52,063 bases of DNA, taken from a virus. Position numbers and translations under genes: made by a program. The notes beneath the pieces were generated by a model, which had not been told where the DNA came from, ran no database searches, and saw only the letters and a list, made by a program, of their open reading frames with translations. Numbering within the stretch: position 1 is the first letter of the stretch; each line of letters opens with the position of its first letter. The stretch covers positions 1 to 52,063 of IMG/VR virus record IMGVR_UViG_3300045988_076157; one strand, given 5' to 3'. Below are positions 32,541 to 50,145 of this stretch, one piece after another.

Positions 32541-32750
32541 GTGACCCGTGGGGAATATATGAGACAGGCTCGGAAACGTGCAGGTCTGACCATTAAACAG
32601 CTTGGTCGTTTATCAGGAGTGGGCTACTCTACAGTCAGTGAGTTGGAAAGAGGTATAAGAAATGACTGTAGAATATCCACCCTGGAGTTACTCGCAGACA
32701 CATTGAGAATCAGCATAGATGAATACATAGGACATACAAGGAGGAAATGA
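32541..32750 (+). CDS. XRE-family helix-turn-helix protein (Cro/CI-type)
   Basis: RKRAGLTIKQLGRLSGVGYSTVSELERG is a canonical HTH_3 pattern. Confidence 0.8.
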   Translation: MTRGEYMRQARKRAGLTIKQLGRLSGVGYSTVSELERGIRNDCRISTLELLADTLRISIDEYIGHTRRK

Positions 32751-32752
32751 TA

Positions 32753-33121
32753 ATGATTAACCGGTTTACTTCCCAGATTCATGCTCTGATGAAAGAGCTG
32801 TGCGTTCCCATGAGAAACAAAGGGTATGACTACATCTTCAAAGCAGTAGAGATCCTGCTTGAGAATCCCAAAATTAGACTGTCTCTTACCAAGGAAGGTG
32901 GAGTGTATGAGCAAGTGGCTACCTACTATGGAGTACGAAACAATACCGTGGAACGCTGTATCCGCACATGCGTAGAAGCTGTGTATCTTGTTGCACCTAC
33001 TGAAACAATTCAGAAAGTGATTGGAGGAAACTTCAACGATTATACCGGCAAAATTACAAACGGTGACTTCTTGTATGCGTTGCGAAATGAGGTGCTGATC
33101 AGAGGAGGTGGTGCTTTGTGA
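32753..33121 (+). CDS. Spo0A C-terminal (effector, DNA-binding) domain-only protein
   Basis: CVPMRNKGYDYIFKAVEILL...LTKEGGVYEQVATYYGVRNNTVERCIRTCVEAVY...GKITNGDFLYAL parallels Spo0A GVPAHIKGYLYLREAI...[32 protein letters not shown]...KPTNSEFIA. There is no receiver domain. Confidence 0.85.
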   Translation: MINRFTSQIHALMKELCVPMRNKGYDYIFKAVEILLENPKIRLSLTKEGGVYEQVATYYGVRNNTVERCIRTCVEAVYLVAPTETIQKVIGGNFNDYTGKITNGDFLYALRNEVLIRGGGAL

Positions 33122-33969: not shown

Positions 33970-34623
33970 ATGACTGACATGAACAAGATCACCGACAAGA
34001 TCCAGAAGTTGCTCAATCTGGCGGGCAACAATCCTAACGAGGAGGAGGCTCAGGCCGCTCTCCTCAAGGCTCAAGAGCTCATGGCTCAGTACAACCTCGA
34101 CAGGGAGTCTTTGGGTGACAAGGAGAAAATCAAGTACTCCTTCGAAATCTCCAATGTCAAGGCCAATCCCAGAGCAAGACGATTGCTCAGCATCATCGCT
34201 GAGGCTTTCGCTTGTAATCCCCTGATCTCCGCAGATCACAAGTGCGGCTTCTTTGGCCGAGAGGACAATGCCAAAGCTGCCAAGGAATGTATGCAGTTTA
34301 TTCACCGTACGATGGAGCGTGGCATGAACCGTGTGTGCAAAGAGCACGGTCTTAAGTCTACAGCTGTTGCAGGTGCTTCTGATATCTACAACGGTTATGC
34401 AGCCGGATTCCTGTCCGGTCTTAAGGAGGTTGTAGATGCTCAGACTGTGGCCTTGGCTGTGGTTGTAACTCAGGATGTGAAGGACGCCTATGCTGCCCGT
34501 TTCCCCAATCTGGGTACATTCAAGGGCAAGACTACTACATGGAATCATGCGTACAAGGACGCCTATCAGTCCGGTGTAACAGATGGACGTTCCGCCATGG
34601 GGAAGAGATCCTTGAAGGCATAA
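33970..34623 (+). CDS. DUF2786-type protein (N-terminal KIQKLLNLA...NEEEAQAALLKAQELM motif)
   Basis: Characteristic N-terminal helix pair of DUF2786 proteins, common in phage and plasmid replication regions. Confidence 0.7.
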   Translation: MTDMNKITDKIQKLLNLAGNNPNEEEAQAALLKAQELMAQYNLDRESLGDKEKIKYSFEISNVKANPRARRLLSIIAEAFACNPLISADHKCGFFGREDNAKAAKECMQFIHRTMERGMNRVCKEHGLKSTAVAGASDIYNGYAAGFLSGLKEVVDAQTVALAVVVTQDVKDAYAARFPNLGTFKGKTTTWNHAYKDAYQSGVTDGRSAMGKRSLKA

Positions 34624-34766
34624 ATGAAAAGGTGTGAAAAGGGTAGGACGGAGCAAGGATAACACCGAGAATCGAAGGAATCCTTGTTCTGTTCACCCGA
34701 ATTTGTGACTTTCTTTTTTCCGTCCGAAGGAGTATACTTGGATTATACCGATTGGAGGTTTTTGCT

Positions 34767-35363
34767 ATGGATTATCAATTTTCTGTCAAAACAATGTCTG
34801 AGTCCCAGCGCATGTTGGCTCTCACAAAAGCCCTTATCATGAGTGGAGTCAGTTTGGATGTGTTTCCTTTGGCGTGGCTCAACGGCACCGATTTCTATCG
34901 TGCTCCCGCATCTAAGCACTTTCATGCTGCCTATTCTGGAGGCCTGTTTGAGCACAGCCTGAATGTAACAGTGAAGTTACTTCAGTTCACCGAAGCCGGT
35001 CTGTGTTCTCCCTGGGGTAGACCCGAAAGCCCCATCATTATTGGTATGCTTCATGACACCACAAAGATCAACCGTTACAAAGCGTACCAGGACATGAACA
35101 CAGTCACTCAGGAAATGGAGACCTTCTACCAGGACAATCCTGAGTATGAGAATCTCGGCGGTCACGGTAACGATTCTGTTCTCAAGCTCAAGAAGGTCAT
35201 GGATCTCATTGAAGAAGAGGAACTGTGTATCAGGTACCACATGGGCGCTTATGAGACAGAGGATTGGGACGGCTTTGATAAAGCTATTCGGAAGTTCCCA
35301 AATGTGCTCTTCACCCACACAGCTGACATGTATGCTTCTAAGTGCATGGAGGTGACTCCATGA
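34767..35363 (+). CDS. HD-domain phosphohydrolase
   Basis: HFHAAYSGGLFEHSL ... MLHDTTK ... GHGNDS fits the HD-superfamily metal-binding pattern. ATG at 34767 after GGAGG. Confidence 0.7.
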   Translation: MDYQFSVKTMSESQRMLALTKALIMSGVSLDVFPLAWLNGTDFYRAPASKHFHAAYSGGLFEHSLNVTVKLLQFTEAGLCSPWGRPESPIIIGMLHDTTKINRYKAYQDMNTVTQEMETFYQDNPEYENLGGHGNDSVLKLKKVMDLIEEEELCIRYHMGAYETEDWDGFDKAIRKFPNVLFTHTADMYASKCMEVTP

Positions 35364-36376
35364 GGAACAAGCCTAAGGATGTTCCATACTGTGGTGTGAG
35401 AAAGGACAGAATTCTCAAAGGAGAGCCTGTGGTAGATCCTGAGATACTCCGGTATCTGTATCAGTTTATTGTAAGACGATACAAGATCCATCTGCGGAAA
35501 GATGTTCAGGGTTTGCCTTCTCCTTGGACAAAGGATCCTGTATTACAAGAATACAGGTTCACCAACGTGAGACGAGAACATGACAGAGAAACCAAGTGGC
35601 TGATCAAGAACATTACAAGCAACCCTGATCTGTCCTATCCAAACAAACTCTTGAACTGTATCTTGTTCCGGTTATACAACAAACATGAGACTTCTGAACT
35701 GATCTCTCAACCTATTCCTTTTGATAAGTATAAGTCTTCAGGGGGGTGGGATCCTGAGTGGTATCGTGCTCTGTTTGAAGCTGCCCAAGCAGAAGATTCT
35801 CACAGGGTGTTCTTCACTGGAGCATTCATTACTGGAGGACTGAAGCGAGCACTGAAATGGTATCTACCCAAGGATGATCCTAAAAACAGCATGGAAATGA
35901 GAATGTTGTGGTTTATGAAAGTCCTCATAGACGATAATGTTGTCAGCAAGATCAAGTCTGCAGTTAACCAAAAAGAGGTGTTCAAAACTCTATGCAGCTA
36001 TGACGGACTTGGGGAGCTTCTGTCTTATCAGATCTTTGTAGATATGACTTACATAGAAGAGTTTCCTTTCAGCGAAAATGAGTTTACTGTAGCAGGTCCT
36101 GGTTGTAAGATAGGACTGAGATTTCTGTTTAAAGACACAGATGGTATGACCCCAGAAGAATGTTTGTTCTGGTTGAGAGATAACCTTGAGTCTATCTTCA
36201 AAAACAAGACCAAGGGGAAATTCAGCTGCGAAGCTCTCTTTACAGATTTGCCTGAGTATGATCGCTGTTTTAATGTCATGAGCTTGGAGAACTGTTTCTG
36301 TGAGTTGAGTAAATATGTGAGAGCTACTAAAGGAACAGGCAGACCCAGAAAGAGATACAAGGAGGTACATGAATGA
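35360..36376 (+). CDS. Helical DNA base-hypermodification-type protein (resembles the 5-hm-pyrimidine DNA kinase helical domain / aGPT-pyrophosphorylase group, tentative)
   Basis: The string PWTKDPVLQEYRFTNVRREHDRETKWL and the later GLGELLSYQIFVDMTY...FTVAGPGCKIGLRFLF recall that group. No P-loop. ATGA overlap with the HD gene. Confidence 0.4.
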   Translation: MRNKPKDVPYCGVRKDRILKGEPVVDPEILRYLYQFIVRRYKIHLRKDVQGLPSPWTKDPVLQEYRFTNVRREHDRETKWLIKNITSNPDLSYPNKLLNCILFRLYNKHETSELISQPIPFDKYKSSGGWDPEWYRALFEAAQAEDSHRVFFTGAFITGGLKRALKWYLPKDDPKNSMEMRMLWFMKVLIDDNVVSKIKSAVNQKEVFKTLCSYDGLGELLSYQIFVDMTYIEEFPFSENEFTVAGPGCKIGLRFLFKDTDGMTPEECLFWLRDNLESIFKNKTKGKFSCEALFTDLPEYDRCFNVMSLENCFCELSKYVRATKGTGRPRKRYKEVHE

Positions 36377-36963
36377 AAACAAGAAATGAGATGAGACGAG
36401 ACAGAACCTTAGCTTGGTTGGTAGTGATTTGCATAATTTTGGTTGCGATTTCAGGAGTAAGTTTGGCGTGCTCTCTTTGGGAAAGCCATAAGAACAATCA
36501 GCCTTTAGATAGAGAGTCTAAGACTGTGTATTCTGAAATAGGAACTCCTCTACGAATTGTCCCCCCTCCCAAGATCATTCTCAGCCCTGATACATCTACT
36601 CCTCAAGCTCCAGAATACGATTATGACTATGTATGTCGTGTAGTTATGGCTGAGACCGGCGGAGAATATAATGAAGATCTGACTCTGGCCGTCTGTCAGG
36701 CTATTATGAATGCGGCTACAGAAAACGATTGGACTCCTGAGGAAGTCTGTATCAATTACAAGTACACAGGACCTCATGACTATGTGAGTGATTTCATACA
36801 AGATATCTGTGACAGAATCTTCCTCTATGGAGAAGTCTATGAGGACTCAGGGAATGCCCAAGTTTTCTACAACCCTTCATATGGACATAGCAGCTATCAT
36901 GAGAGTCAAATCTTTGTGTGTGAGATTGGTGGAGTTCGTTTCTTTGAAAGGGTGGCTGTATGA
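36373..36963 (+). CDS. Membrane-anchored SleB/CwlJ-family cell wall hydrolase (Hydrolase_2)
   Basis: N-terminal TM LAWLVVICIILVAISGVSLA. Catalytic-domain pattern VCRVVMAETGGE...LAVCQAIMNA...QVFYNPS...EIGGVRFF parallels SleB (ARLVYSEARGE...VAAVVLNR...FYNP...IGNHVF). Confidence 0.7.
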   Translation: MKTRNEMRRDRTLAWLVVICIILVAISGVSLACSLWESHKNNQPLDRESKTVYSEIGTPLRIVPPPKIILSPDTSTPQAPEYDYDYVCRVVMAETGGEYNEDLTLAVCQAIMNAATENDWTPEEVCINYKYTGPHDYVSDFIQDICDRIFLYGEVYEDSGNAQVFYNPSYGHSSYHESQIFVCEIGGVRFFERVAV

Positions 36964-37781
36964 TACCTGTATTTGTTCCATCCTACAAGCGTCCCAAGGC
37001 TACCTTACTTGTTCGTTCACTGAACTGGGACTTTCCTCTGTATGTATTTGTACGCAAAGAGGAACTTGAGGACTATTCTTGGATAAAGAAACGTCCTAAT
37101 ACCAAGCTGATAACTTTGAAAAATGTACACGACATCGGTGAGACTCGAGCAGCAATGTTACGATATGCTTCAGTACATGGCATCCCTCGGGTGTTCATGT
37201 TGGATGATGACGTTACACGATTAGATCTGTCCGTATGGGACGAGGAGCGCCGGGTAGTGCGTGCCTCTGGTACGGTACGAGGGTGTCCTGAAAACTGGCA
37301 GGTCGTTCTTGCAGAGTGGGAAAGCTTGTGGGGAGATGAAGCCCTATTTGGTGCTTCTTACAGACCATTCAGTTGGAGCATAAAGAAAAATGCACTCAAT
37401 ACCAATCGGCGTGTTCAACTTCAACAAGCTGTAGGTGTGAATGTGGAGCGCATTGTAGCTGAGGGACTCCGATACTACAGCAATAAAGATGTAGGCAATG
37501 AAGACCTGTTCTTACAACTAGAATGCTATCAACAGGGACTTGAGTGTGTACAGACTCCGATGATACAGTATGATTGTCCCGCTATGGGTGCTGGGAAAGG
37601 AGGCTGTAATGCTTCCGAACTTGGCTCAATTGCTGAGAAGCAACATCGACGCGTGAGGAAATTCCTGAAGGCTTGTGGTAATGACCCCGCAGTCCGTGTA
37701 TCAACTACTCGAAGTGGAGTAGAAAGCATAAAGTTCAACTGGAAAGTGATTGACAAATTGATGGGAGGATCCTATGAGTAA
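36960..37781 (+). CDS. GT-A-like glycosyltransferase (TET/JBP-associated TAGT-like, tentative)
   Basis: IPVFVPSYKRP N-terminus and MLDDDV (DxD) motif. Embedded among nucleotide-modification genes. Confidence 0.45.
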   Translation: MIPVFVPSYKRPKATLLVRSLNWDFPLYVFVRKEELEDYSWIKKRPNTKLITLKNVHDIGETRAAMLRYASVHGIPRVFMLDDDVTRLDLSVWDEERRVVRASGTVRGCPENWQVVLAEWESLWGDEALFGASYRPFSWSIKKNALNTNRRVQLQQAVGVNVERIVAEGLRYYSNKDVGNEDLFLQLECYQQGLECVQTPMIQYDCPAMGAGKGGCNASELGSIAEKQHRRVRKFLKACGNDPAVRVSTTRSGVESIKFNWKVIDKLMGGSYE

Positions 37782-38250
37782 CAAAAGTTGGTTAGATATG
37801 GCCGAAATGTATGCGAAACAGCACAGTGGCTGTAACAAGGTGGCTGTGGGTTGTGCTATTGTATCTTTGACTAGCAACAACGTCTTGGCTTTTGGAGCTA
37901 ACAAAGCCATGCCTGATCTGTGCAAATCCCCCAGGGGTTGTTTGAGGGTTGAGCTGTATGGAGACGACAGCAAGAACCACCGGAACTCTGGTGATTGCCG
38001 AGCTATTCATAGTGAGATTGATGCAATTGCTTCTGCAGCTCGCTATGGGATTTCCTTGAATCGATCCGTGGCATATGTTACACGTTATCCCTGCGAGAGC
38101 TGTGCCAAAGCTTTGATCCAGGCTGGCATCTATGAGGTGTACTATGGAGGTACAGCTGAGATCAGTGATTACACCAGAGCGCTCTTTGAACGATACAATG
38201 TAAGATGTTACCATGTCACAGATTGGCGTGAGGATCTGTCTGACCGATAA
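37774..38250 (+). CDS. dCMP deaminase (ComEB/cytidine-deoxycytidylate deaminase family)
   Basis: Zinc motifs HSEIDAI (HxE) and PCESCAKAL (PCxxC). Confidence 0.85.
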   Translation: MSNKSWLDMAEMYAKQHSGCNKVAVGCAIVSLTSNNVLAFGANKAMPDLCKSPRGCLRVELYGDDSKNHRNSGDCRAIHSEIDAIASAARYGISLNRSVAYVTRYPCESCAKALIQAGIYEVYYGGTAEISDYTRALFERYNVRCYHVTDWREDLSDR

Positions 38251-38262
38251 GGAGGGTTGATT

Positions 38263-38766
38263 ATGGAATACGTTGGGTTGAGTCAAGCTCAGTTGGACAT
38301 TTTGGCAAAGGCTAGAAGCACATACGGTGCTACTGCACAGATCCTTGTATCTAATGAGGAACTCTGTGAGCTGGCTGCGGTGTGTGCTAAGTTCCCTCGC
38401 TATGAGTCTCCTGAGAAAGCTAGGGAGGAGCTCTATGACCGAGCTGTGGATGAGGTAGCAGATGTGATTATCGTTTTGGATCACATCGTGAGCATCTTCG
38501 ATATCAAAGCTGAAGACATGAGAACTCGTATTTCCGGGAAGATTGGTCGTCTGGCCTATTGGCTGAGTCAATCTGAGTCTATGGAAGAGACTACTCTCTA
38601 TCGAGACATACCTTCTACTGATCCAAATCAACTGTCCCTGTTTGATAACCTTGGTTGTCCTTGCGTTGGCTGTAGTTACTACAAGAACTTCCTGGAACTG
38701 AAGATCGGGGGGAAGTGCTATGAATGCCGAGGGACTGGCAAAAACTTCAATCCAAGGGAGGACTAA
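38263..38766 (+). CDS. MazG-like nucleotide pyrophosphohydrolase with a C-terminal Cys cluster
   Basis: LVSNEELCELAAV...DEVADVIIVLDHI fits the MazG EExxE/D...ADV pattern. C-terminus CPCVGC...CYECRGTG. Confidence 0.7.
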   Translation: MEYVGLSQAQLDILAKARSTYGATAQILVSNEELCELAAVCAKFPRYESPEKAREELYDRAVDEVADVIIVLDHIVSIFDIKAEDMRTRISGKIGRLAYWLSQSESMEETTLYRDIPSTDPNQLSLFDNLGCPCVGCSYYKNFLELKIGGKCYECRGTGKNFNPRED

Positions 38767-44091: not shown

Positions 44092-44167
44092 GGGACATTA
44101 GCTCAGTTGGTAGAGCATCTGGCTCATAACCGGGTGGCCACGGGTTCAAGTCCCTTATGTCCCACCA
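44092..44167 (+). tRNA. tRNA with anticodon CAU (elongator Met, or Ile2 if lysidine-modified), CCA encoded
   Basis: Manual cloverleaf: acceptor GGGACAT/ATGTCCC, D-arm GCTC-AGTTGGTA-GAGC, anticodon loop CTCATAA (CAT at 44125-44127), T-loop TTCAAGT, 3' ACCA. One C-T mismatch in the T-stem. The G1-C72 pair argues against an initiator tRNA. Confidence 0.85.
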
Positions 44168-46066: not shown

Positions 46067-46738
46067 ATGAGCAGAAGAATGAAAGTCGATATGACCAACG
46101 TGGAGAGTTACACCCGTTGTCCCGAGGGTCAGTTCCCTGCCAAGCTGGTCAAACTGGAAGAATGCACCATTCAGGGTTCCGGCGACGACGGTCTGAAGGC
46201 AAAGTTTGAAGTCACTGGTGGTTCTGGCAAGGGCAGCAACGTCTTTGAGACCTTCTCTCTGGGTGAGAAAGCTCTGTGGAAGCTGAAGATGATGCTGGAG
46301 GCCATGGGCATGAAGGCCACCGGCAAGATGACTTTGGATCTGGACAAGCTGGAAGGCAAGTCCGTCGGTATCGAAGTCGTTCATGATGAGTTCAATGGTC
46401 GGAAAACTGCAAAGATCGCCCAGTACCTCAAGCTGAGTGAGCTGGAAGACACTGAGGCTGATGAAGACGACGAAGATGAGGATGATGACGATGAGGATGA
46501 GGAGCCGGTAAAGAAGCCTGCAAAGAAAGCTCCTGCCAAGAAGTCCAAAAAGCAGCCTGAGCCGGATGAGGACGAGGATGAGGATGATGACGAAGATGAG
46601 GACGAAGACGAGGAAAAGTCTGCCCCCAAGAAGTCTTCTAAGAAAGCTCCTGCAAAGGCTGCCAAAAAGTCTTCCAAGAAGGCAAAGCCTGAACCCGAGG
46701 ACGATGATGAGGACGACTGGGAGGACGATGAGGACTGA
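46067..46738 (+). CDS. DUF669-family (SSB-like) protein with a long alternating acidic/basic tail ending DDWEDDED
   Basis: N-terminal domain CPEGQFPAKLVKLEE...KAKFEVTGG...FSLGEKALWKLKMMLEAMG fits DUF669. The tail has three acidic and two Lys-rich blocks. Confidence 0.75.
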   Translation: MSRRMKVDMTNVESYTRCPEGQFPAKLVKLEECTIQGSGDDGLKAKFEVTGGSGKGSNVFETFSLGEKALWKLKMMLEAMGMKATGKMTLDLDKLEGKSVGIEVVHDEFNGRKTAKIAQYLKLSELEDTEADEDDEDEDDDDEDEEPVKKPAKKAPAKKSKKQPEPDEDEDEDDDEDEDEDEEKSAPKKSSKKAPAKAAKKSSKKAKPEPEDDDEDDWEDDED

Positions 46739-46779: not shown

Positions 46780-46794
46780 AGATAGGAGATGATT

Positions 46795-47733
46795 ATGCTA
46801 TATGACTACAGCATTCCAGGAGACTGCAAAGAGCTAAGAAGATCTATTTTCACAGAGCTGATGACTCCCGATACAAAAACTGGATACATGGACGGGGAAG
46901 ACTATCAACTCATGAGACCATACGCAAAGGAACGAGCACTTGATCTTGAATCCTGTCTATGGCTGGCCTTTCTGTATGGTATTTCCTACTCATGTACAAC
47001 CACAATGCGGTTTCTTGAAGAATTCCCCACTATTGCAGATGTAACTCCTAAACGAGTCAACGCATTTTGGAAAGACAAGAAAGAATCCCTTTGGTTTAAT
47101 CCCGACAAGAAGTACCTCAAAAACAACGATCAAGTTATACCGGCCATTCGGTCTATCTGTGAATTGTCCCATAAAAACTTGAGTGACTACCTTTGCCCAT
47201 TGTTAGAGCAAGGATTTGATGTTACATACAAGGAAATTACCAAGCGTTGGCGTTTCTTTGGTCCCCATGGAGCATACTTGTTCTTTGATGCCCTGTACGG
47301 TATGCAACCAAGCTGGTATTCTGATCCTGAACACCTGGATTGGAAAAACTGTGGTCAAACTGTTGTGGAAGGTATGGCTCATCTACTTTGTGATGATGAA
47401 GCTATACAAACCAAACAATACAACCTGGAACGATACAATCGAATGCTGGATAAACTGGCCAACAGATTCCATAAACCTAAGATTGTCTTGGAGTCCAATC
47501 TTTGTTTCTTCCGCAAGCTGTTCAAGGGTTCCCGATATTTGGGCTATTATGCAGACCGCAACCTGATGGAGTGTCATGCTACAGCTGACATACTGAGGGA
47601 AGATTGTGGAATAGATGTTTGGAAACTGCGCAAAAAGACTACTCAGGATGATCTACGTGGAGAGATACATGGTTGGGACGCCATACGCAAAGAAAGGTTG
47701 AAATTGTTTTTGACTACAGGAGCTCTATCATGA
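46795..47733 (+). CDS. Helical protein, second candidate DNA base-hypermodification enzyme (aGPT-pyrophosphorylase / glycosylase-like, tentative)
   Basis: WRFFGPHGAYLFFDALYGM...NCGQTVVEGMAHLL resembles the G.G.f.a.q...D..y...GPG...G pattern also present in 35360-36376. ATGA-coupled to the P-loop kinase. Confidence 0.35.
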   Translation: MLYDYSIPGDCKELRRSIFTELMTPDTKTGYMDGEDYQLMRPYAKERALDLESCLWLAFLYGISYSCTTTMRFLEEFPTIADVTPKRVNAFWKDKKESLWFNPDKKYLKNNDQVIPAIRSICELSHKNLSDYLCPLLEQGFDVTYKEITKRWRFFGPHGAYLFFDALYGMQPSWYSDPEHLDWKNCGQTVVEGMAHLLCDDEAIQTKQYNLERYNRMLDKLANRFHKPKIVLESNLCFFRKLFKGSRYLGYYADRNLMECHATADILREDCGIDVWKLRKKTTQDDLRGEIHGWDAIRKERLKLFLTTGALS

Positions 47734-48320
47734 GACTTCTTATCAATATCCGAGGATGCAATGGTGCTGGTAAATCTACCATCCCCATGTCTATGCTAGA
47801 TGATCCAGAGATGTTTATTGAAGAGCTCAAGTACAGTGATGGCAAAAGGATCGGTGCATTCACTGTATTCCCATCCTATGGTTGGGTTGCTCTAGGAACC
47901 TATTTCAACAAGACCGGAGGGCTTGATGGTATTCGCAACATGGAATGTACCAAGACCACCCTCTATGCAGCCTTGGGTCTCTACCCTGACTATGATATCC
48001 TCATGGAAGGGATCCTCTGTAGTACAGTGTTCTCTAGCTATTCTGACCTGTTTCACGAGATAGAGAATCAGACCGGCAGACAGATAATGATTCTATCCCT
48101 TCTTCCGCCCCTCGAGGTCTGTCTAGAGCGCATTCAAACTCGGAATGGAGGTAAACCCATTAAAGAAGACCTCGTGGCAGGAAAGCGAAGTTCTGTGGCA
48201 AGGAGCCACGAAAAGTTCAAGCAAGAAGGATTCACATGTATAAAGGTAGACTCTTCCCGAGTCCCTAGAGAAAGAATGCTCAAAGCATTTCTTCAAACTG
48301 TGGAAAAACATCGGAGGTAA
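47730..48320 (+). CDS. P-loop kinase (nucleotide or DNA 5-hydroxymethyl-pyrimidine kinase candidate)
   Basis: Walker A GCNGAGKST near the N-terminus, 196 aa. Context between hypermodification-type genes. Confidence 0.6.
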   Translation: MRLLINIRGCNGAGKSTIPMSMLDDPEMFIEELKYSDGKRIGAFTVFPSYGWVALGTYFNKTGGLDGIRNMECTKTTLYAALGLYPDYDILMEGILCSTVFSSYSDLFHEIENQTGRQIMILSLLPPLEVCLERIQTRNGGKPIKEDLVAGKRSSVARSHEKFKQEGFTCIKVDSSRVPRERMLKAFLQTVEKHRR

Positions 48321-48322
48321 CT

Positions 48323-48658
48323 ATGGACCAGAAAATGGAAATTCATCAGCATCTCTGTGAGAAGATGCATGACCTGTATGAGCGTAAAAACGCTGACTAT
48401 GGGGATAGCTTTGCTCAGCTCCGCAAGCGATATCCAAACTTCGTGTGTATGCGGCTGTTTGACAAGTTAAACCGACTTGACACCATCATCCAGCCGGGGT
48501 ATGAGTGTAAGGTGTCTGACGAGAAGATTGAGGACACCCTGATGGATATTGCCAACTATGCGATCATGGAGCTGACTGAACGCATCGCTGACAGAAATCC
48601 CCCTATATCTGCAAGCAACCTGTATGCAACTTCTATTGATGCAAAGGAGGTACACTAA
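48323..48658 (+). CDS. DUF1599 (nucleotide modification associated domain 1, MazG-related) protein
   Basis: KNADYGDSF...MRLFDKLNRLDTI...EDTLMDIANYAIM fits the DUF1599 pattern. Confidence 0.7.
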   Translation: MDQKMEIHQHLCEKMHDLYERKNADYGDSFAQLRKRYPNFVCMRLFDKLNRLDTIIQPGYECKVSDEKIEDTLMDIANYAIMELTERIADRNPPISASNLYATSIDAKEVH

Positions 48659-48659
48659 C

Positions 48660-49388
48660 ATGTCTGTATTCATTTTCAATGCACAAACGGTAAATGATGC
48701 TTGGGAGCAGGCATTCGGCGCTCTGGCGATCCAGGCTTCTGAGGGCTTTGCTGACACTTCCCGTGATGGCGGAGTGGTTGGTGAGATCACTGATGCTGTT
48801 TTCTGTATCAAGGATCCTACTCGCAACATTGTGACCAGTCCGATCCGAAAGATGCCCTTGCGCTATGCTGTCGGAGAGTTGGCTTGGTATCTGTCCGGTT
48901 CCAACAAGGTCTCTGATATCAGTCGGTTTGCTAAGAAGTGGGTTGACATCTCTGATGATGGTGAAACCAATAACTCTGCTTATGGGTATCGTATCTTCAC
49001 CAAGTTTGGGTTTGATCAGTGGGAGTATGTGAAGTCTCTCCTGATGAAAGACCCCAATTCTCGTCAGGCAGTCATTCACATCAAGAATGCTGATGATACA
49101 CCCACCAAGGACACTCCCTGCACGGTGTATCTCCAGTTCTTCATCCGCGATGGCAAGTTGAATCTGTCGGTACATATGCGATCCAACGATATTTGGATGG
49201 GTGTGCCTTATGACATGTTCAGCTTTTGCTTCCTGCAGATGAAGATGGCTATGGAGTTAGGTGTTGAGATCGGTGAATACCACCACTACGCTGGGTCTCT
49301 GCACATGTATGCTCGAGATTGGGAGACTGCTCAGAAAACTGTGGGTAGTTGTTCCTGCAAGAAGCTCAAGCGTGAAGGAGTGAACTGA
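48660..49388 (+). CDS. ThyA-fold deoxypyrimidylate C5-(hydroxy)methylase, T4 gp42-like, Asp at the base-specificity position
   Basis: Catalytic Cys154 in TPCTVYLQF. MRSNDIWMGVPYDMF aligns ungapped with E. coli [15 protein letters not shown], so N177 corresponds to Asp185 (GAC at 49212-49214). NSAYGY, DPNSRQ and GSLHMY strings resemble T4 dCMP hydroxymethylase. Confidence 0.8.
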   Translation: MSVFIFNAQTVNDAWEQAFGALAIQASEGFADTSRDGGVVGEITDAVFCIKDPTRNIVTSPIRKMPLRYAVGELAWYLSGSNKVSDISRFAKKWVDISDDGETNNSAYGYRIFTKFGFDQWEYVKSLLMKDPNSRQAVIHIKNADDTPTKDTPCTVYLQFFIRDGKLNLSVHMRSNDIWMGVPYDMFSFCFLQMKMAMELGVEIGEYHHYAGSLHMYARDWETAQKTVGSCSCKKLKREGVN

Positions 49389-49762
49389 TGTCATACAACA
49401 GGGTCACCAAAGGACCTGAGCTCATCAAGGTGATGGTCAAAATTCTTGATGAGAATAAGGACGTTCTGGTATGGGATCACTTCTGCTATGCTCCGAAAGA
49501 CCTGTACCTCAAGTTCCTGGAAAACCGAGGTATTGAGAGATTTGAACTGGCAGAGTACCTTCAGCGGTGGTGCCTGTTAGACTTCAATTGCGACTTACCT
49601 ATGACCAGAGCTCAGGACATGACTGTGCTCAAAGAACTGATAATGGACAAATACTCCAAGATCTTCCCGTATCTGTCTCGCCCCAGCACTACAGACAGAC
49701 AGGGTTGGTGTAGAGTTTGGTTGTCCGAACATATGGAAAGAGAAATGAGGAAAAAGAAATGA
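49388..49762 (+). CDS. Hypothetical protein (124 aa)
   Basis: ORF track entry, coupled to both neighbours. Confidence 0.65.
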   Translation: MSYNRVTKGPELIKVMVKILDENKDVLVWDHFCYAPKDLYLKFLENRGIERFELAEYLQRWCLLDFNCDLPMTRAQDMTVLKELIMDKYSKIFPYLSRPSTTDRQGWCRVWLSEHMEREMRKKK

Positions 49763-50145
49763 TTGATAAGACTACTTATGATGAGGATACTTTGTTCCCC
49801 CAGATTGCCGCAGTGGACTTTGACGGTCTGCTTGTAGAAAACAAGTTCCCGGAGATCGGTGAGATCCGTCAGCCCATGTTTGATGCTGTAAAGCAACTTC
49901 AGCAGAATGGTTGGAAGATCATTCTGTGGAGCTGTCGTACTGACGAGATGTTGGCCGAGGCTGTTGCTTTCTGCACGAATCATGGTCTTGTTCCTGATGC
50001 CGTGAATGAAAATCTCAAGGAAGTACAGAAGTATTTCGGTGGAGATACTCGTAAAGTATTTGCCAACATCTATCTGGATGACCGGAGTGCGAACTACCGG
50101 AGCGACCTTGGAGTATTCGCAACTATCCCGCCGGAGACTCTGTAG
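49759..50145 (+). CDS. HAD-superfamily phosphatase (nucleotidase-like)
   Basis: AAVDFDGLL (DxD nucleophile motif) near the N-terminus. 128 aa. Confidence 0.6.
   Translation: MIDKTTYDEDTLFPQIAAVDFDGLLVENKFPEIGEIRQPMFDAVKQLQQNGWKIILWSCRTDEMLAEAVAFCTNHGLVPDAVNENLKEVQKYFGGDTRKVFANIYLDDRSANYRSDLGVFATIPPETL

Follow-up and report, generated by a model that had tools for sequence, protein, structure and literature searches.

A phage locus that may build a hypermodified cytosine with a kinase and amino-acid:DNA transferases so far known only from thymine hypermodification

Described pyrimidine hypermodifications and the content of the locus

Hypermodifications protect phage DNA from restriction enzymes and Cas nucleases, and their study has yielded enzymes for epigenomic tools; 5-HMUDK, for instance, is sold for hmU mapping. 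The known cytosine hypermodifications are mostly glycosylations, together with carbamoylation and carboxymethyl-derived forms, and to our knowledge all known pathways that employ a kinase and amino-acid:DNA transferases (AADTs) decorate thymine.

Thymidine hypermodification is encoded in the clusters of M6, ViI, SP10, PhiW-14 and PaMx11, which combine a dUMP hydroxymethylase with 5-HMUDK, aGPT-Pplase/AADT and tailoring enzymes. The one 5-HMUDK assayed on both bases phosphorylates hmU, not hmC, in DNA (PMC6457204), and Pplase1 of ViI is reported to put serine on 5-phosphomethyl-dU (PMC11472151). AADTs attack C6 through a cysteine in the manner of DNMTs, and their contacts to DNA are mainly with the backbone (PMC11472151). 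On the cytosine side, T4 gp42 (EC 2.1.2.8; ~246 aa, gene 42 CDS, L007 10480-11220) produces hm-dCMP in T-even phages, and in the Firmicutes siphoviruses VPE25 and VFW (Andrewesvirinae) an Asp-type synthase adjoins nucleotide-pool and glycosyltransferase genes, the glycosyltransferase of VPE25 being T4 beta-GT-like. The DNA of VPE25 resists bisulfite conversion (PMC4999554) and is experimentally cytosine-modified. Phosphorylation of hmC by such a kinase has been suggested solely for phage TET/5mYOX clusters with a P-loop kinase and an aGPT-Pplase (Burke et al. 2021), and the kinase- and AADT-linked 5mYOX dioxygenases were later classed as T-dioxygenases; in the literature on an hmC DNA kinase or on AADT action on cytosine, only an untested suggestion was found.

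The window, which is the whole stretch of 52,063 nucleotides that was analysed (IMG/VR record IMGVR_UViG_3300045988_076157), carries the following genes related to these systems:

34752..35363, + strand: HD-domain metal-dependent phosphohydrolase (PHROG 28876 'metal-dependent phosphohydrolase', E 2e-23)
35342..36376, + strand: aGPT-Pplase1-type transferase, Pfam 'HMUDK_hel' (PF18723, E 7e-68)
36960..37781, + strand: DNA glycosyltransferase of the TET-associated (TAGT) family (PF20691, E 3e-13)
37774..38250, + strand: dCMP deaminase (PF00383, E 7e-17; PHROG 174, E 1e-28)
38257..38766, + strand: MazG-like nucleoside triphosphate pyrophosphohydrolase (PHROG 2245, E 3e-11, the sole support)
46789..47733, + strand: predicted amino-acid:DNA transferase (AADT, formerly aGPT-Pplase; Pfam matches of homologues, fold)
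47673..48320, + strand: P-loop kinase of the 5-hmdU DNA kinase family (PF18748 HMUDK_HMUD1, E 6e-24, 85 bits against a cutoff of 27)
48323..48658, + strand: DUF1599 / Nmad1, 'nucleotide modification associated domain 1' (PF07659, E 4e-10)
48660..49388, + strand: thymidylate-synthase-fold enzyme, predicted dCMP hydroxymethylase or 5-hm-dCMP synthase (PF00303, residues, tree); key residues Glu73, Ser106, Tyr108, Arg135, Asp151, Cys154, Thr155, Arg174, Ser175, Asp177, Asp185, His215 and Tyr217
49388..49762, + strand: conserved 124-aa protein (directly 3' of the synthase in all relatives, 39-100% identity)
49717..50145, + strand: HAD-like phosphatase, probable start ~49759 (PHROG 24386, PHROG 1238)

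The T-even pathway is resembled in that the window also has a dCMP deaminase, NTP pyrophosphohydrolases, which are predicted candidates for the dCTPase, and a DNA glycosyltransferase. However, this glycosyltransferase is TAGT-type and not T4 alpha- or beta-GT, a gp1-like dNMP kinase is absent in the window, and T-even phages lack the 5-HMUDK-family kinase and the two amino-acid:DNA transferases that are present here. The T4-like logic read into the locus by the first-pass annotation was retained for the hydroxymethylase but only in part for the later steps, given the DNA-kinase family, the two transferases and the lack of a thymidylate-kinase-type dNMP kinase; the P-loop kinase that it had placed in this scheme is present, but belongs to PF18748 and is not a T4 gp1-like nucleotide kinase. 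Its DUF1599 neighbour, HAD neighbour, deaminase and glycosyltransferase were all recovered with the families listed above, and its MazG call with the PHROG match only. The two transferase genes of the same system, 46789-47733 and 35342-36376, had been overlooked.

The thymidine hypermodification clusters share more with the window: a kinase of the same Pfam family (33-47% identity), a Pplase1 (37% to the ViI-like phage protein), an AADT with the PaMx11 gp46 fold, a dCMP deaminase, a nearby family-A polymerase and, in relatives of the window, a variable slot for radical SAM, methyltransferase and glycosyltransferase genes. Every characterised cluster of this kind has an Asn-type (uracil) hydroxymethylase, whereas that of the window is Asp-type (cytosine), and therefore the hypermodified base would be a different one. 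The synthases of VPE25 and VFW are 41-47% identical to that of the window, with 41% recorded for VPE25; in the 16.6-kb VPE25 region no match to the window kinase, AADT or Pplase1 and no deaminase was detected. In the TET/5mYOX clusters a dioxygenase forms the hydroxymethyl group on DNA, whereas here a thymidylate synthase (TS) homologue would form it before replication.

The synthase and its predicted substrate

The open reading frame at 48660-49388 encodes 242 aa, as do the closest homologues, which are 97% identical. In two contigs with one of the closest homologues the called gene starts 1 base past the DUF1599 stop, which is the spacing that a start at 48660 would give here. Translation therefore probably begins at 48660 and not at the ATG further upstream (48624). 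Profile and fold both place the protein in the thymidylate synthase superfamily (ThyA fold): it matches PF00303 (Thymidylat_synt) with E 2e-27 and 96 bits against a cutoff of 24.3, and Foldseek gives a probability of 1.0 to MilA and to many ThyA structures. The AlphaFold model is of moderate confidence (pLDDT 74). The CMP hydroxymethylase MilA is the best solved relative (sequence E 1e-33; fold E 2e-16, 35-36% identity), and the fold matches include the dCMP hydroxylase of phage HY126. No second TS homologue is present in the window. More than 1800 homologues reach an E value of 1e-20 or lower; of the top 120, many are located on ~50-kb contigs and all contain the motif RS[NK]D[IL]WMGVPYD. The closest cultured synthase is that of Agathobaculum phage AB434P2 (60% identity), but its genome is partial and kinase, Pplase and deaminase were not found in it, so it is uninformative on the pathway. 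The closest phage record labels its homologue 'deoxyuridylate hydroxymethyltransferase', a label without experimental backing.

MAFFT aligns PCTVYLQFFIRDGKLNLSVHMRSNDIWMGVPYDMFSF to a 37-residue stretch of E. coli ThyA with zero relative gaps, which agrees with the ungapped alignment from the catalytic Cys onward that had been claimed from the letters. Asp185 (GAC, 49212-49214) falls in the column of ThyA Asn177, as claimed, and of T4 gp42 Asp179, and the register at Asp185 is identical in the HMMER alignments to the solved ThyA and MilA structures. The ThyA residues Cys146 (catalytic), Glu58, Arg166, Asp169, His207 and Tyr209 correspond to Cys154 (TGC, 49119-49121), Glu73, Arg174, Asp177, His215 and Tyr217, while the positions of ThyA L143 and H147 are occupied by the acidic Asp151 and by Thr155. 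The strings NSAYGY, KDPNSRQ, MRSND and GSLHMY, which had been likened to the T4 enzyme, are all present. Identity to T4 gp42 is only ~26-30%; at all 18 positions checked, however, the two proteins agree in kind, the T4/synthase pairs being E60/E73, S94/S106, Y96/Y108, R123/R135, D145/D151, C148/C154, T149/T155, D171/D177, D179/D185, H216/H215 and Y218/Y217. They have the same fold, and both lack the ThyA-like C-terminal tail that closes over the folate: 25 residues follow Tyr217 in the synthase, whereas 55 follow Tyr209 in E. coli ThyA.

Asp at the N177 position is associated with cytosine recognition (PMC8670742, PMC13326640, PMC5175136), and in viromes the Asp/Asn split follows cytosine modification (PMC8670742). 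More generally, Asn or Asp at ThyA 177 sets the pyrimidine, while hydroxymethylases are recognised by an acidic residue at L143 and 5-hydroxy-dCMP synthases by D169N (PMC13326640). The T4 dCH signature, Asp145 and Ser94, serves water activation (PMC6400193) and is matched by the acidic Asp151 in the L143 column and by Ser106, which is conserved; both favour hydroxymethylation over methylation. Likewise, a 5-hydroxy-dCMP product is disfavoured because Asp177 is kept at the D169 position. Ser/Arg versus Ala/Lys decides between deoxy and ribo specificity (PMC5175136). Ser175 and Arg135 occupy the relevant sites (TS-167 Ser, TS-126 Arg), and for this reason the synthase is predicted to be specific for dCMP and not for CMP. 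MilA, which serves mildiomycin biosynthesis and not DNA modification, likewise has Asp in the columns of L143 and N177, but carries the ribose-favouring Ala176 and Lys133.

The same division is seen in the tree, which splits cleanly into an Asp clade and an Asn clade; the synthase groups in the former with T4 gp42 and Enterococcus phage VPE25 and is separated there from the Asn-type dUMP hydroxymethylases found in M6, ViI-like and SP10-like phages. These enzymes and that of LuckyBarnes have N147/N177, and all reference dUMP hydroxymethylases combine Asn at 147 and 177 with a one-residue insertion before N177. The Asp is found at the Asp185 column in 148 of the 150 best representatives of 50%-identity clusters. 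Taken together, the residues and the tree, the latter having been suggested as a check, indicate that the product of 48660-49388 is very probably a dCMP hydroxymethylase, which supports the earlier proposal that an Asp-type ThyA-fold enzyme uses dCMP and leads to C5-modified cytosine.

Other identities were considered and are disfavoured. A canonical dTMP-forming ThyA needs Asn177, His147 and the hydrophobic Leu143 and Trp83, where the synthase has Asp185, Thr155, Asp151 and Ile97; the D169N signature of 5-hydroxy-dCMP synthases (RB69 gp48 / DLP3 gp80 type) is absent; and the dUMP hydroxymethylases of the SPO1/M6/ViI/SP10 type do not agree with Asp185, Thr155 and the Asp clade.

Kinase, transferase and nucleotide-pool genes

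The profile match of the P-loop kinase places it in the 5-hmdU DNA kinase family and not in a nucleotide-kinase family. Its true start is probably the ATG at ~47730, and its Walker A motif is GCNGAGKS. Identity is 38% to the kinase of M6, 33% to that of ViI-like phages and 47% to those of the SP10-like Bacillus phages Nachito and Goe26; these SP10-like kinases pair with Asn-type synthases, an observation that speaks against action of the kinase and transferases on hmC.

The AADT at 46789-47733 has no Pfam match of its own, but its homologues with 51-65% identity match PF18724 'Amino acid:DNA transferase' (E 5e-9 to 8e-6). The top three PDB folds for its AlphaFold model (pLDDT 94.6) are PaMx11 gp46/PUGT, a 5-PmdU glycinyltransferase, with probability 0.98-0.99 and TM 0.48-0.55 at weak E values of 0.1-0.3, followed by helix-hairpin-helix glycosylases. 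The protein thus combines an all-alpha glycosylase-like fold with a conserved cysteine, and Cys239, which is invariant in the family, is the probable counterpart of the catalytic Cys. A profile-profile comparison of the 314-aa AADT family with the Pplase1 family gave a probability of only 2.4%, and therefore the family call is based on the Pfam matches of homologues and the fold search; sequence searches of the PDB with Pplase1, AADT, kinase and the AADT profile returned nothing useful. Reading the base preference of the kinase or the AADT from residues was abandoned, as PaMx11 gp46 contacts mainly the backbone and identity is 10-12%.

AADT and kinase form a two-gene cassette, jointly present or absent in 23 relatives, which lies directly upstream of DUF1599 and the synthase; the whole stretch is part of a module that interrupts a conserved replication backbone. 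Relatives carry radical SAM/SPASM, methyltransferase and glycosyltransferase tailoring genes in the slot that separates kinase and synthase. DUF1599 keeps its position directly upstream of the synthase in most relatives and is replaced in one of them (L010) by a small thymidylate-kinase-like gene; it may be a nucleotide-level helper, possibly a pyrophosphatase. No fusion of DUF1599 to an Asp-type synthase was found among the 150 representatives. For the 124-aa protein downstream of the synthase the family searches gave no match. The HAD-like phosphatase that follows, whose PDB relative 2obb (E 2e-18) is a hypothetical protein, has a functional link to the synthase; the two domains are also known as a natural fusion (P0241). 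In Bacillus phage Nachito a 38% identical HAD homologue directly follows an Asn-type synthase, and this companionship is an observation against a reading tied to cytosine.

In the second group of genes, Pplase1 shares 36-39% identity, across 97% of its length, with Ackermannviridae proteins that include one annotated as Pplase1. Wherever the locus of a relative extends over the site, Pplase1 is there, and the same holds for the dCMP deaminase. The invariant cysteines are conserved in both transferases, AADT and Pplase1. The TAGT gene also matches PHROG 842 'beta-glucosyl-HMC-alpha-glucosyltransferase' (E 2e-13) and is optional among relatives; a natural fusion of TAGT with an Asp-type synthase is known (P0263). 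The MazG-like protein, for which a Pfam search gave no match, is a candidate dCTPase, and the HD phosphohydrolase may sanitise the nucleotide pool. Whether the HD gene is part of the system is uncertain, because a homologue is present in bajarodcaudo virus 5, a backbone relative without the modification module. Co-occurrence of AADT and kinase, and the location of Pplase1 beside glycosyltransferase and deaminase, argue for a post-replicative hypermodification gene set that accompanies a cytosine-specific synthase.

Possible routes to the modified base

By analogy with T4 gp42, Cys154 would attack C6 of dCMP while Asp185 would read the N3/N4 edge of cytosine; the one-carbon unit would come from methylene-tetrahydrofolate, and water activated by Asp151 and Ser106 would trap the exocyclic methylene and yield 5-hydroxymethyl-dCMP, not 5-methyl-dCMP. 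The MazG-like, DUF1599 and HD pyrophosphohydrolases and the deaminase would reshape the nucleotide pool, hm-dCMP would be phosphorylated by a kinase other than any identified in the window, and the family-A polymerase would insert hmC into DNA. After replication the hydroxymethyl group could serve as a handle, and family membership suggests its uses: the TAGT-type glycosyltransferase may attach a sugar, the 5-HMUDK-family kinase may phosphorylate the hydroxymethyl group, and the two amino-acid:DNA transferases may swap the phosphate for an amino acid or a similar nucleophile.

The virion DNA is likely to carry an hmC-derived cytosine, as predicted from the synthase sequence. The PHROG and TAGT matches, and the fusion of TAGT with an Asp-type synthase, point to hmC being kept in DNA; AADT and kinase directly upstream, and the tailoring slot of the relatives, suggest that kinase and transferases act in the synthase pathway; and the hmC route is chemically plausible, because AADTs attack C6 in the DNMT-like manner and contact mainly the backbone. 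It is with modest confidence that we regard hmC in DNA, which is then glycosylated and/or phosphorylated and substituted, as the best explanation overall. That the kinase and the transferases act on hmC is proposed tentatively. More tentative still is the full scheme of an hmC counterpart of thymidine hypermodification, in which an Asp-type synthase, an HMUDK-family kinase and amino-acid substitution by AADT/Pplase1 are complemented in some genomes by glycosylation, methylation or radical SAM rearrangement, and which would be widespread among the abundant Lachnospiraceae-type phages of the gut and would appear again in Microbacterium cluster EA phages and other lineages.

The alternatives differ in the base on which the kinase and transferases would act. 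In T-even phages and in animals, dCMP deaminases also act on dCMP with a substituent at C5, and the deaminase of the window could turn part or all of the hm-dCMP into hm-dUMP, with hmU as the substrate of kinase and AADT; with partial deamination, one hydroxymethylase would give DNA with both glycosylated hmC and hypermodified T. This detour agrees with the universal presence of the deaminase in the phage group, within the Pplase1-TAGT-deaminase-MazG cluster, with the restriction of every biochemically characterised 5-HMUDK or AADT pathway to hmU, with the rejection of hmC by the assayed 5-HMUDK and with the 47% identity to SP10-like kinases and the HAD partner shared with an SP10-like phage. 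The deaminase, however, is not diagnostic, since T4 carries a dCMP deaminase and keeps hmC. Firmicutes phages commonly have Asn-type dUMP hydroxymethylases, and a deaminase with such an enzyme would suffice directly, whereas the Asp is kept in nearly all representatives; Microbacterium phage BouleyBill combines Asp-type synthase, kinase and Pplase in a complete genome in which no deaminase was found; and TAGT with its synthase fusion points to persistence of hmC in DNA. The detour is considered unlikely. Of the products named in the early caveat, 5-mC is argued against by Asp151 and Ser106, but deamination to 5-hmU stays a live rival, and the main one. Less probable again is a plain T4-like scheme, in which the P-loop kinase would be a dNMP kinase, TAGT would glycosylate and the AADT-like proteins would be unrelated or inactive. 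No thymidylate-kinase-type dNMP kinase was found in the window, although such genes are often fused or adjacent to Asp-type synthases, and an hm-dCMP kinase is in this sense 'missing'; the TAGT match supports glycosylation, and VPE25 is a Firmicutes precedent for hmC with a glucosyltransferase. On the other hand, the characterised PF18748 members act on DNA, the kinase and the AADT gene come and go together, and relatives without the kinase still have the synthase, so that the kinase seems unneeded for the triphosphate. Moreover, two transferases with invariant cysteines are conserved, and TAGT is missing in several relatives that keep kinase, AADT and Pplase1.

The remaining alternatives concern the synthase itself. 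If it were a dUMP hydroxymethylase despite its Asp, the locus would be a standard thymidine hypermodification cluster, and the context of 5-HMUDK, AADT, Pplase1 and deaminase is exactly that of M6-, ViI- and SP10-type clusters; the label on the closest phage record also fits. We hold this to be highly improbable: Asp at N177 and Thr at H147 are as in T4 gp42, whereas the reference dUMP enzymes have Asn at both, the D179N variant of T4 gp42 no longer binds dCMP and forms hardly any 5hm-dCMP, and replacing Asn by Asp is known to shift the preference of TS from dUMP to dCMP (PMC8670742, PMC6400193). Least probable of all is another C5-cytosine product, namely 5-methyl-dCMP (XP12-type), 5-hydroxy-dCMP (RB69-type) or hm-CMP (MilA-type). 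The fold is common to all these enzymes, and MilA and the HY126 dCMP hydroxylase are among the matches, but Asp151 and Ser106 argue against methylation, Asp177 is kept where 5-hydroxy-dCMP synthases carry Asn, and Ser175 and Arg135 stand where MilA and BcmA carry Ala and Lys.

If the kinase and transferases do act on hmC, the products would be a new class of DNA bases, aminoacyl- or amino-alkyl-methylcytosines, and the kinase an hmC-specific DNA kinase useful for 5hmC labelling; the deamination route, if true, would be a new way to supply hmU. The modification, if real, may be common in the gut virome, and DNA that carries it may skew sequencing libraries as well as predictions of host range.

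The combination of an Asp-type synthase with Pplase1 recurs in unrelated phages. Among IMG/VR Pplase1 loci, 11 of the 43 with a synthase within 10 kb are Asp-type, and these loci include a third Asp-type lineage (L089), in whose 21 kb there is no deaminase. A home-made kinase HMM found few kinases in the IMG/VR loci, even in Asn-type clusters, and its counts were not used. In five relatives (L018, L019, L036-L038) and the L089 lineage Pplase1 is kept with no P-loop kinase in the ~20 kb examined, with which an obligatory kinase step fits poorly. A search for literature on DNA modification in Microbacterium cluster EA phages returned nothing; culture collections already include Microbacterium phages whose genes follow this logic. 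The kinase of BouleyBill is a P-loop nucleotide kinase 3, and in its relative Cheeto1, whose synthase is 80% identical, a TAGT-like glycosyltransferase is found instead.

Substrate and product of the synthase

The synthase gene, ORF 48660-49388 (+), encodes 242 amino acids, and its product, which matches Pfam Thymidylat_synt (E 2e-27) and four PHROG 'thymidylate synthase' families, is the single thymidylate synthase homologue within the window. An alternative ATG at 48624 lies upstream and overlaps the preceding gene; the start is likely at 48660, because the nearest homologues (97% identity) are also 242 amino acids long and, on two contigs with a 97% homologue, the called gene starts 1 base past the DUF1599 stop. 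Among solved structures, the CMP hydroxymethylase MilA comes closest both in sequence and in predicted fold; the AlphaFold model is of moderate quality (pLDDT 74).

The Asp/Asn residue rule is textbook knowledge, and it has been used on metagenomes before. At position 177 (E. coli ThyA numbering) Asn goes with uracil and Asp with cytosine (PMC8670742; PMC13326640; PMC5175136), and this split tracks cytosine modification in viromes (PMC8670742). Position 143 is acidic in hydroxymethylases and hydrophobic in methylases (PMC13326640), and in T4 dCH the substrate water is activated by Asp145 and Ser94, the D145N mutant being dead (PMC6400193). The recently found flavin-dependent 5-hydroxy-dCMP synthases have Asn in place of Asp169 (PMC13326640). 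Ser167 and Arg126 mark deoxyribose-specific enzymes, whereas Ala and Lys take these positions in MilA and BcmA (PMC5175136).

In the synthase, the diagnostic residues are, in its own numbering, Asp185, Asp151, Ser106, Asp177, Ser175 and Arg135. The first-pass annotation had placed an Asp opposite ThyA Asn177, free of gaps from the catalytic Cys onward, and both points were borne out. The MAFFT alignment has no relative gap against E. coli ThyA between the catalytic Cys and the specificity site, Asp185 aligns with ThyA Asn177 and T4 gp42 Asp179, the register is unchanged in HMMER alignments to solved structures, and the codons agree (GAC, 49212-49214, for residue 185; TGC, 49119-49121, for Cys154). 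The protein agrees in kind with T4 gp42 at 18 of the 18 positions examined. The likeness to gp42 is seen in Thr155, which follows the catalytic Cys, and in the small hydrophobic Ile97, where ThyA carries Trp83; the C-terminal tail of ThyA is absent from both proteins.

The Asp motif is present in all 120 closest homologues (the best 120 of more than 1800), and of the 150 top-ranking 50%-identity cluster representatives (40-83% identity) 148 have the Asp and 143 the full D/C/T/R/D/D signature. A neighbour-joining tree sets a clean Asn clade apart from an Asp clade that holds the window synthase, Agathobaculum phage AB434P2 (60% identity), VPE25, T4 gp42 and Microbacterium phages. The DNA of VPE25 and VFW is bisulfite-resistant, i.e. 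cytosine-modified (PMC4999554). Unlike the window synthase, the dUMP hydroxymethylases compared (M6, a ViI-like phage, the SP10-like Nachito and Goe26, and LuckyBarnes) have Asn at 147 and 177, and all except Goe26 have a one-residue insertion before 177. The gp42-like positions, the surveys and the tree back the cytosine-type enzyme proposed earlier, and the predicted product is very probably 5-hydroxymethyl-dCMP. The window enzyme belongs to a known kind, VPE25 being a precedent for Asp-type synthases among Firmicutes siphoviruses.

Four other products were considered, namely 5-methyl-dCMP, 5-hydroxy-dCMP, hm-CMP and hm-dUMP, and each fails a tested signature. The closest cultured homologue, that of AB434P2 (L001/L012 3838-4500; RSCDLWYGFPYD), is annotated 'deoxyuridylate hydroxymethyltransferase' yet has the Asp-type signature; the substrate in that annotation is probably wrong.

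Two clusters of candidate modification genes

Two genes upstream of the synthase overlap each other:

46789-47733 (+), candidate amino-acid:DNA transferase (AADT), previously without annotation
47673-48320 (+), P-loop kinase of the 5-hmdU DNA kinase family (PF18748, E 6e-24)

The P-loop kinase of the first-pass annotation is present, but it belongs to the 5-hmdU DNA kinase family, so that the T4-like scheme built on it had to be revised. Its identity to other phage kinases is 47% for SP10-like Bacillus phages, 38% for M6 and 33% for ViI-like phages. No thymidylate-kinase-type dNMP kinase was found within the window. The neighbouring product is identified as a predicted AADT by the Pfam family of its homologues (51-65% identical, matching PF18724, 'Amino acid:DNA transferase'), by its modelled fold and by a cysteine invariant in its family. 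The three best PDB fold matches of the model (pLDDT 94.6) are PaMx11 gp46, followed by helix-hairpin-helix glycosylases; gp46 is a 5-phosphomethyl-dU glycinyltransferase whose family has a catalytic cysteine (PMC11472151). The nearby DUF669 protein (46067-46738, +) ends in a long, strongly charged low-complexity stretch rich in Asp, Glu and Lys (~46450-46738), and this tail is conserved in relatives.

A second cluster is located 12 kb upstream:

34752-35363 (+), HD hydrolase
35342-36376 (+), aGPT-Pplase1 transferase (PF18723, E 7e-68)
36960-37781 (+), TAGT-family glycosyltransferase, also matching a beta-glucosyl-HMC alpha-glucosyltransferase PHROG
37774-38250 (+), dCMP deaminase
38257-38766 (+), MazG-like pyrophosphohydrolase

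Over its full length the Pplase1 shares 36-39% identity with an Ackermannviridae protein that carries the annotation Pplase1 in one of its copies. Between it and the glycosyltransferase, 36373-36963 (+) encodes a 196-aa protein that has a hydrophobic segment at its N-terminus, matches PHROG 18750 and is only faintly similar to cell-wall hydrolases (Pfam Hydrolase_2, E 0.17). Its 63% match is in the relative L018 only, with 27-30% matches in L026, L027 and L040, and the gene is probably an unrelated insertion. Just upstream of the HD and Pplase1 genes, a protein of DUF2786 + DUF7168 architecture is encoded (33970-34623, +); the same architecture occurs near Pplase or synthase genes in Microbacterium phages (L015 3067-3804; L013 2119-2850), which may be coincidence or may mark a conserved partner.

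The base on which the kinase and transferases act

The best explanation is that the dCMP hydroxymethylase would supply hmC to DNA, where it would then be decorated at the DNA level by the TAGT. That the kinase and transferases also act on hmC in DNA is a tentative reading, to which we give somewhat less than an even chance. In its favour, the only hydroxymethylase in the window is of the cytosine type, and the pairing of an Asp-type synthase with kinase/Pplase genes recurs, by gene content, in unrelated phages. In the Microbacterium phage BouleyBill (L015/L017) the Asp-type synthase is accompanied by a P-loop nucleotide kinase 3 and a Pplase, and a profile search of its complete genome found no deaminase; Lucky3 is of the same gene content. 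In Cheeto1 (L013), whose synthase is 80% identical to that of BouleyBill, a TAGT-like glycosyltransferase replaces the kinase and Pplase, a swap which suggests that both decorations act on the same DNA base; both of these cluster-EA-type phages carry thymidylate kinase and MazG. Ilzat resembles Cheeto1 in pairing this synthase with a glycosyltransferase. Pplase1 has a synthase within 10 kb at 43 IMG/VR loci, and at 11 of these the synthase is Asp-type. In one lineage, L089, Pplase1 is followed in turn by a methyltransferase, a dUTPase-like gene, an unknown gene and the synthase, and no deaminase is present in its 21 kb. Pplase1 proteins ~40% identical to that of the window occur alongside both Asp-type and Asn-type synthases. 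The contacts of the solved AADT are chiefly to the DNA backbone, and its attack at C6 resembles that of a DNMT (PMC11472151), which makes a switch of base chemically plausible.

On the other hand, hmU is the starting base in all characterised pathways with these kinases and transferases (including PMC11472151), and the sole kinase tested on both substrates did not phosphorylate hmC in DNA (PMC6457204). Also against action on hmC are the close relationship of the window kinase to SP10-like kinases, the universal dCMP deaminase of this phage group and a HAD partner common to an Asn-type cluster. It is possible, though rather unlikely, that hm-dCMP is deaminated to hm-dUMP and feeds ordinary thymidine hypermodification, perhaps with both pyrimidines modified in DNA. 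The plain T4-like scheme, in which the kinase works on the nucleotide, we hold to be quite improbable. A dUMP hydroxymethylase in spite of the Asp is very doubtful, given Asp185, the placement in the Asp clade and the two Asn residues of the reference dUMP enzymes, and any other C5-cytosine product is hardly credible against the signatures of Asp151/Ser106, Asp177 and Ser175/Arg135. Six loci (L018, L019, L036, L037, L038 and L089) have Pplase1 and an Asp-type synthase, no AADT-kinase cassette, and no other Walker-A kinase in roughly 20 kb each. They count against action on hmC and fit none of the pathway models; if Pplase1 does need a phosphorylated substrate, their kinase is either elsewhere or not required.

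We found no description in the literature of a pre-replicative cytosine-type synthase coupled to kinase/AADT machinery, the nearest precedent being an untested suggestion for TET-containing contigs (Burke et al. 2021). The 5mYOX dioxygenases linked to kinase and AADT are now classed as T-dioxygenases. The interest of the coupling hinges on its chemistry, which should be quick to test, since cultured Microbacterium phages share the same gene logic; no paper was found on the DNA chemistry of BouleyBill/Cheeto1-type phages.

Relatives, variable slot and host

The window phage belongs to a very abundant uncultured group: more than 1800 synthase homologues reach at least E 1e-20, and contigs of ~50-55 kb carry many of the top 120. 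Its replication genes recur in a relative from rodent faeces, bajarodcaudo virus 5 (L014; polymerase 56% identical), from which the AADT-kinase-DUF1599-synthase-HAD block is missing in its entirety, and this marks the block as an inserted module. A comparison of 23 IMG/VR relatives has synthase, deaminase and Pplase1 in every locus covering their sites, whereas the TAGT is optional, and AADT and kinase are both present or both absent. The slot between the kinase (or DUF669 gene) and DUF1599/synthase holds differing tailoring genes (L009 8685-9662; L019 15916-16890; L010 8571-9383; L032 about 16775): radical SAM/SPASM, SAM methyltransferase with a small dNMP kinase, or TAGT-like glycosyltransferase. 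Several different end products are therefore suggested within one phage group. Partners are also linked to the synthase by natural fusions among metagenomic proteins of the Asp clade: TAGT-synthase (P0263), synthase-HAD (P0241, whose HAD domain is a homologue of window 49717-50145) and synthase-thymidylate-kinase-like proteins (P0248, P0251, P0290, P0309).

The sole match in the reference genome collection, the 53.6-kb contig L119, comes from the bin of a Candidatus Avilachnospira MAG (Lachnospiraceae), a weak hint to the host. This binning, a polymerase that shares 36% identity with its counterparts in Clostridium perfringens phages and a Spo0A-domain gene point to a host among the Clostridia. 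The last of these (32747-33121, +; 124 aa) encodes a Spo0A C-terminal DNA-binding domain (PF08769, E 9e-20), with a 182-aa version in the relative L010, and such a Spo0A-like effector carried by a phage could disturb the way the host controls sporulation. In some relatives the family-A polymerase match extends over ~2.1 kb rather than the usual 1.7 kb, or covers residues 4-400 only (L029 10001-12118; L037, L038), which suggests an insertion such as an intein or homing endonuclease. A single tRNA-Met (CAT) is located at 44092-44167 (+), between the polymerase and PD-(D/E)XK nuclease genes.
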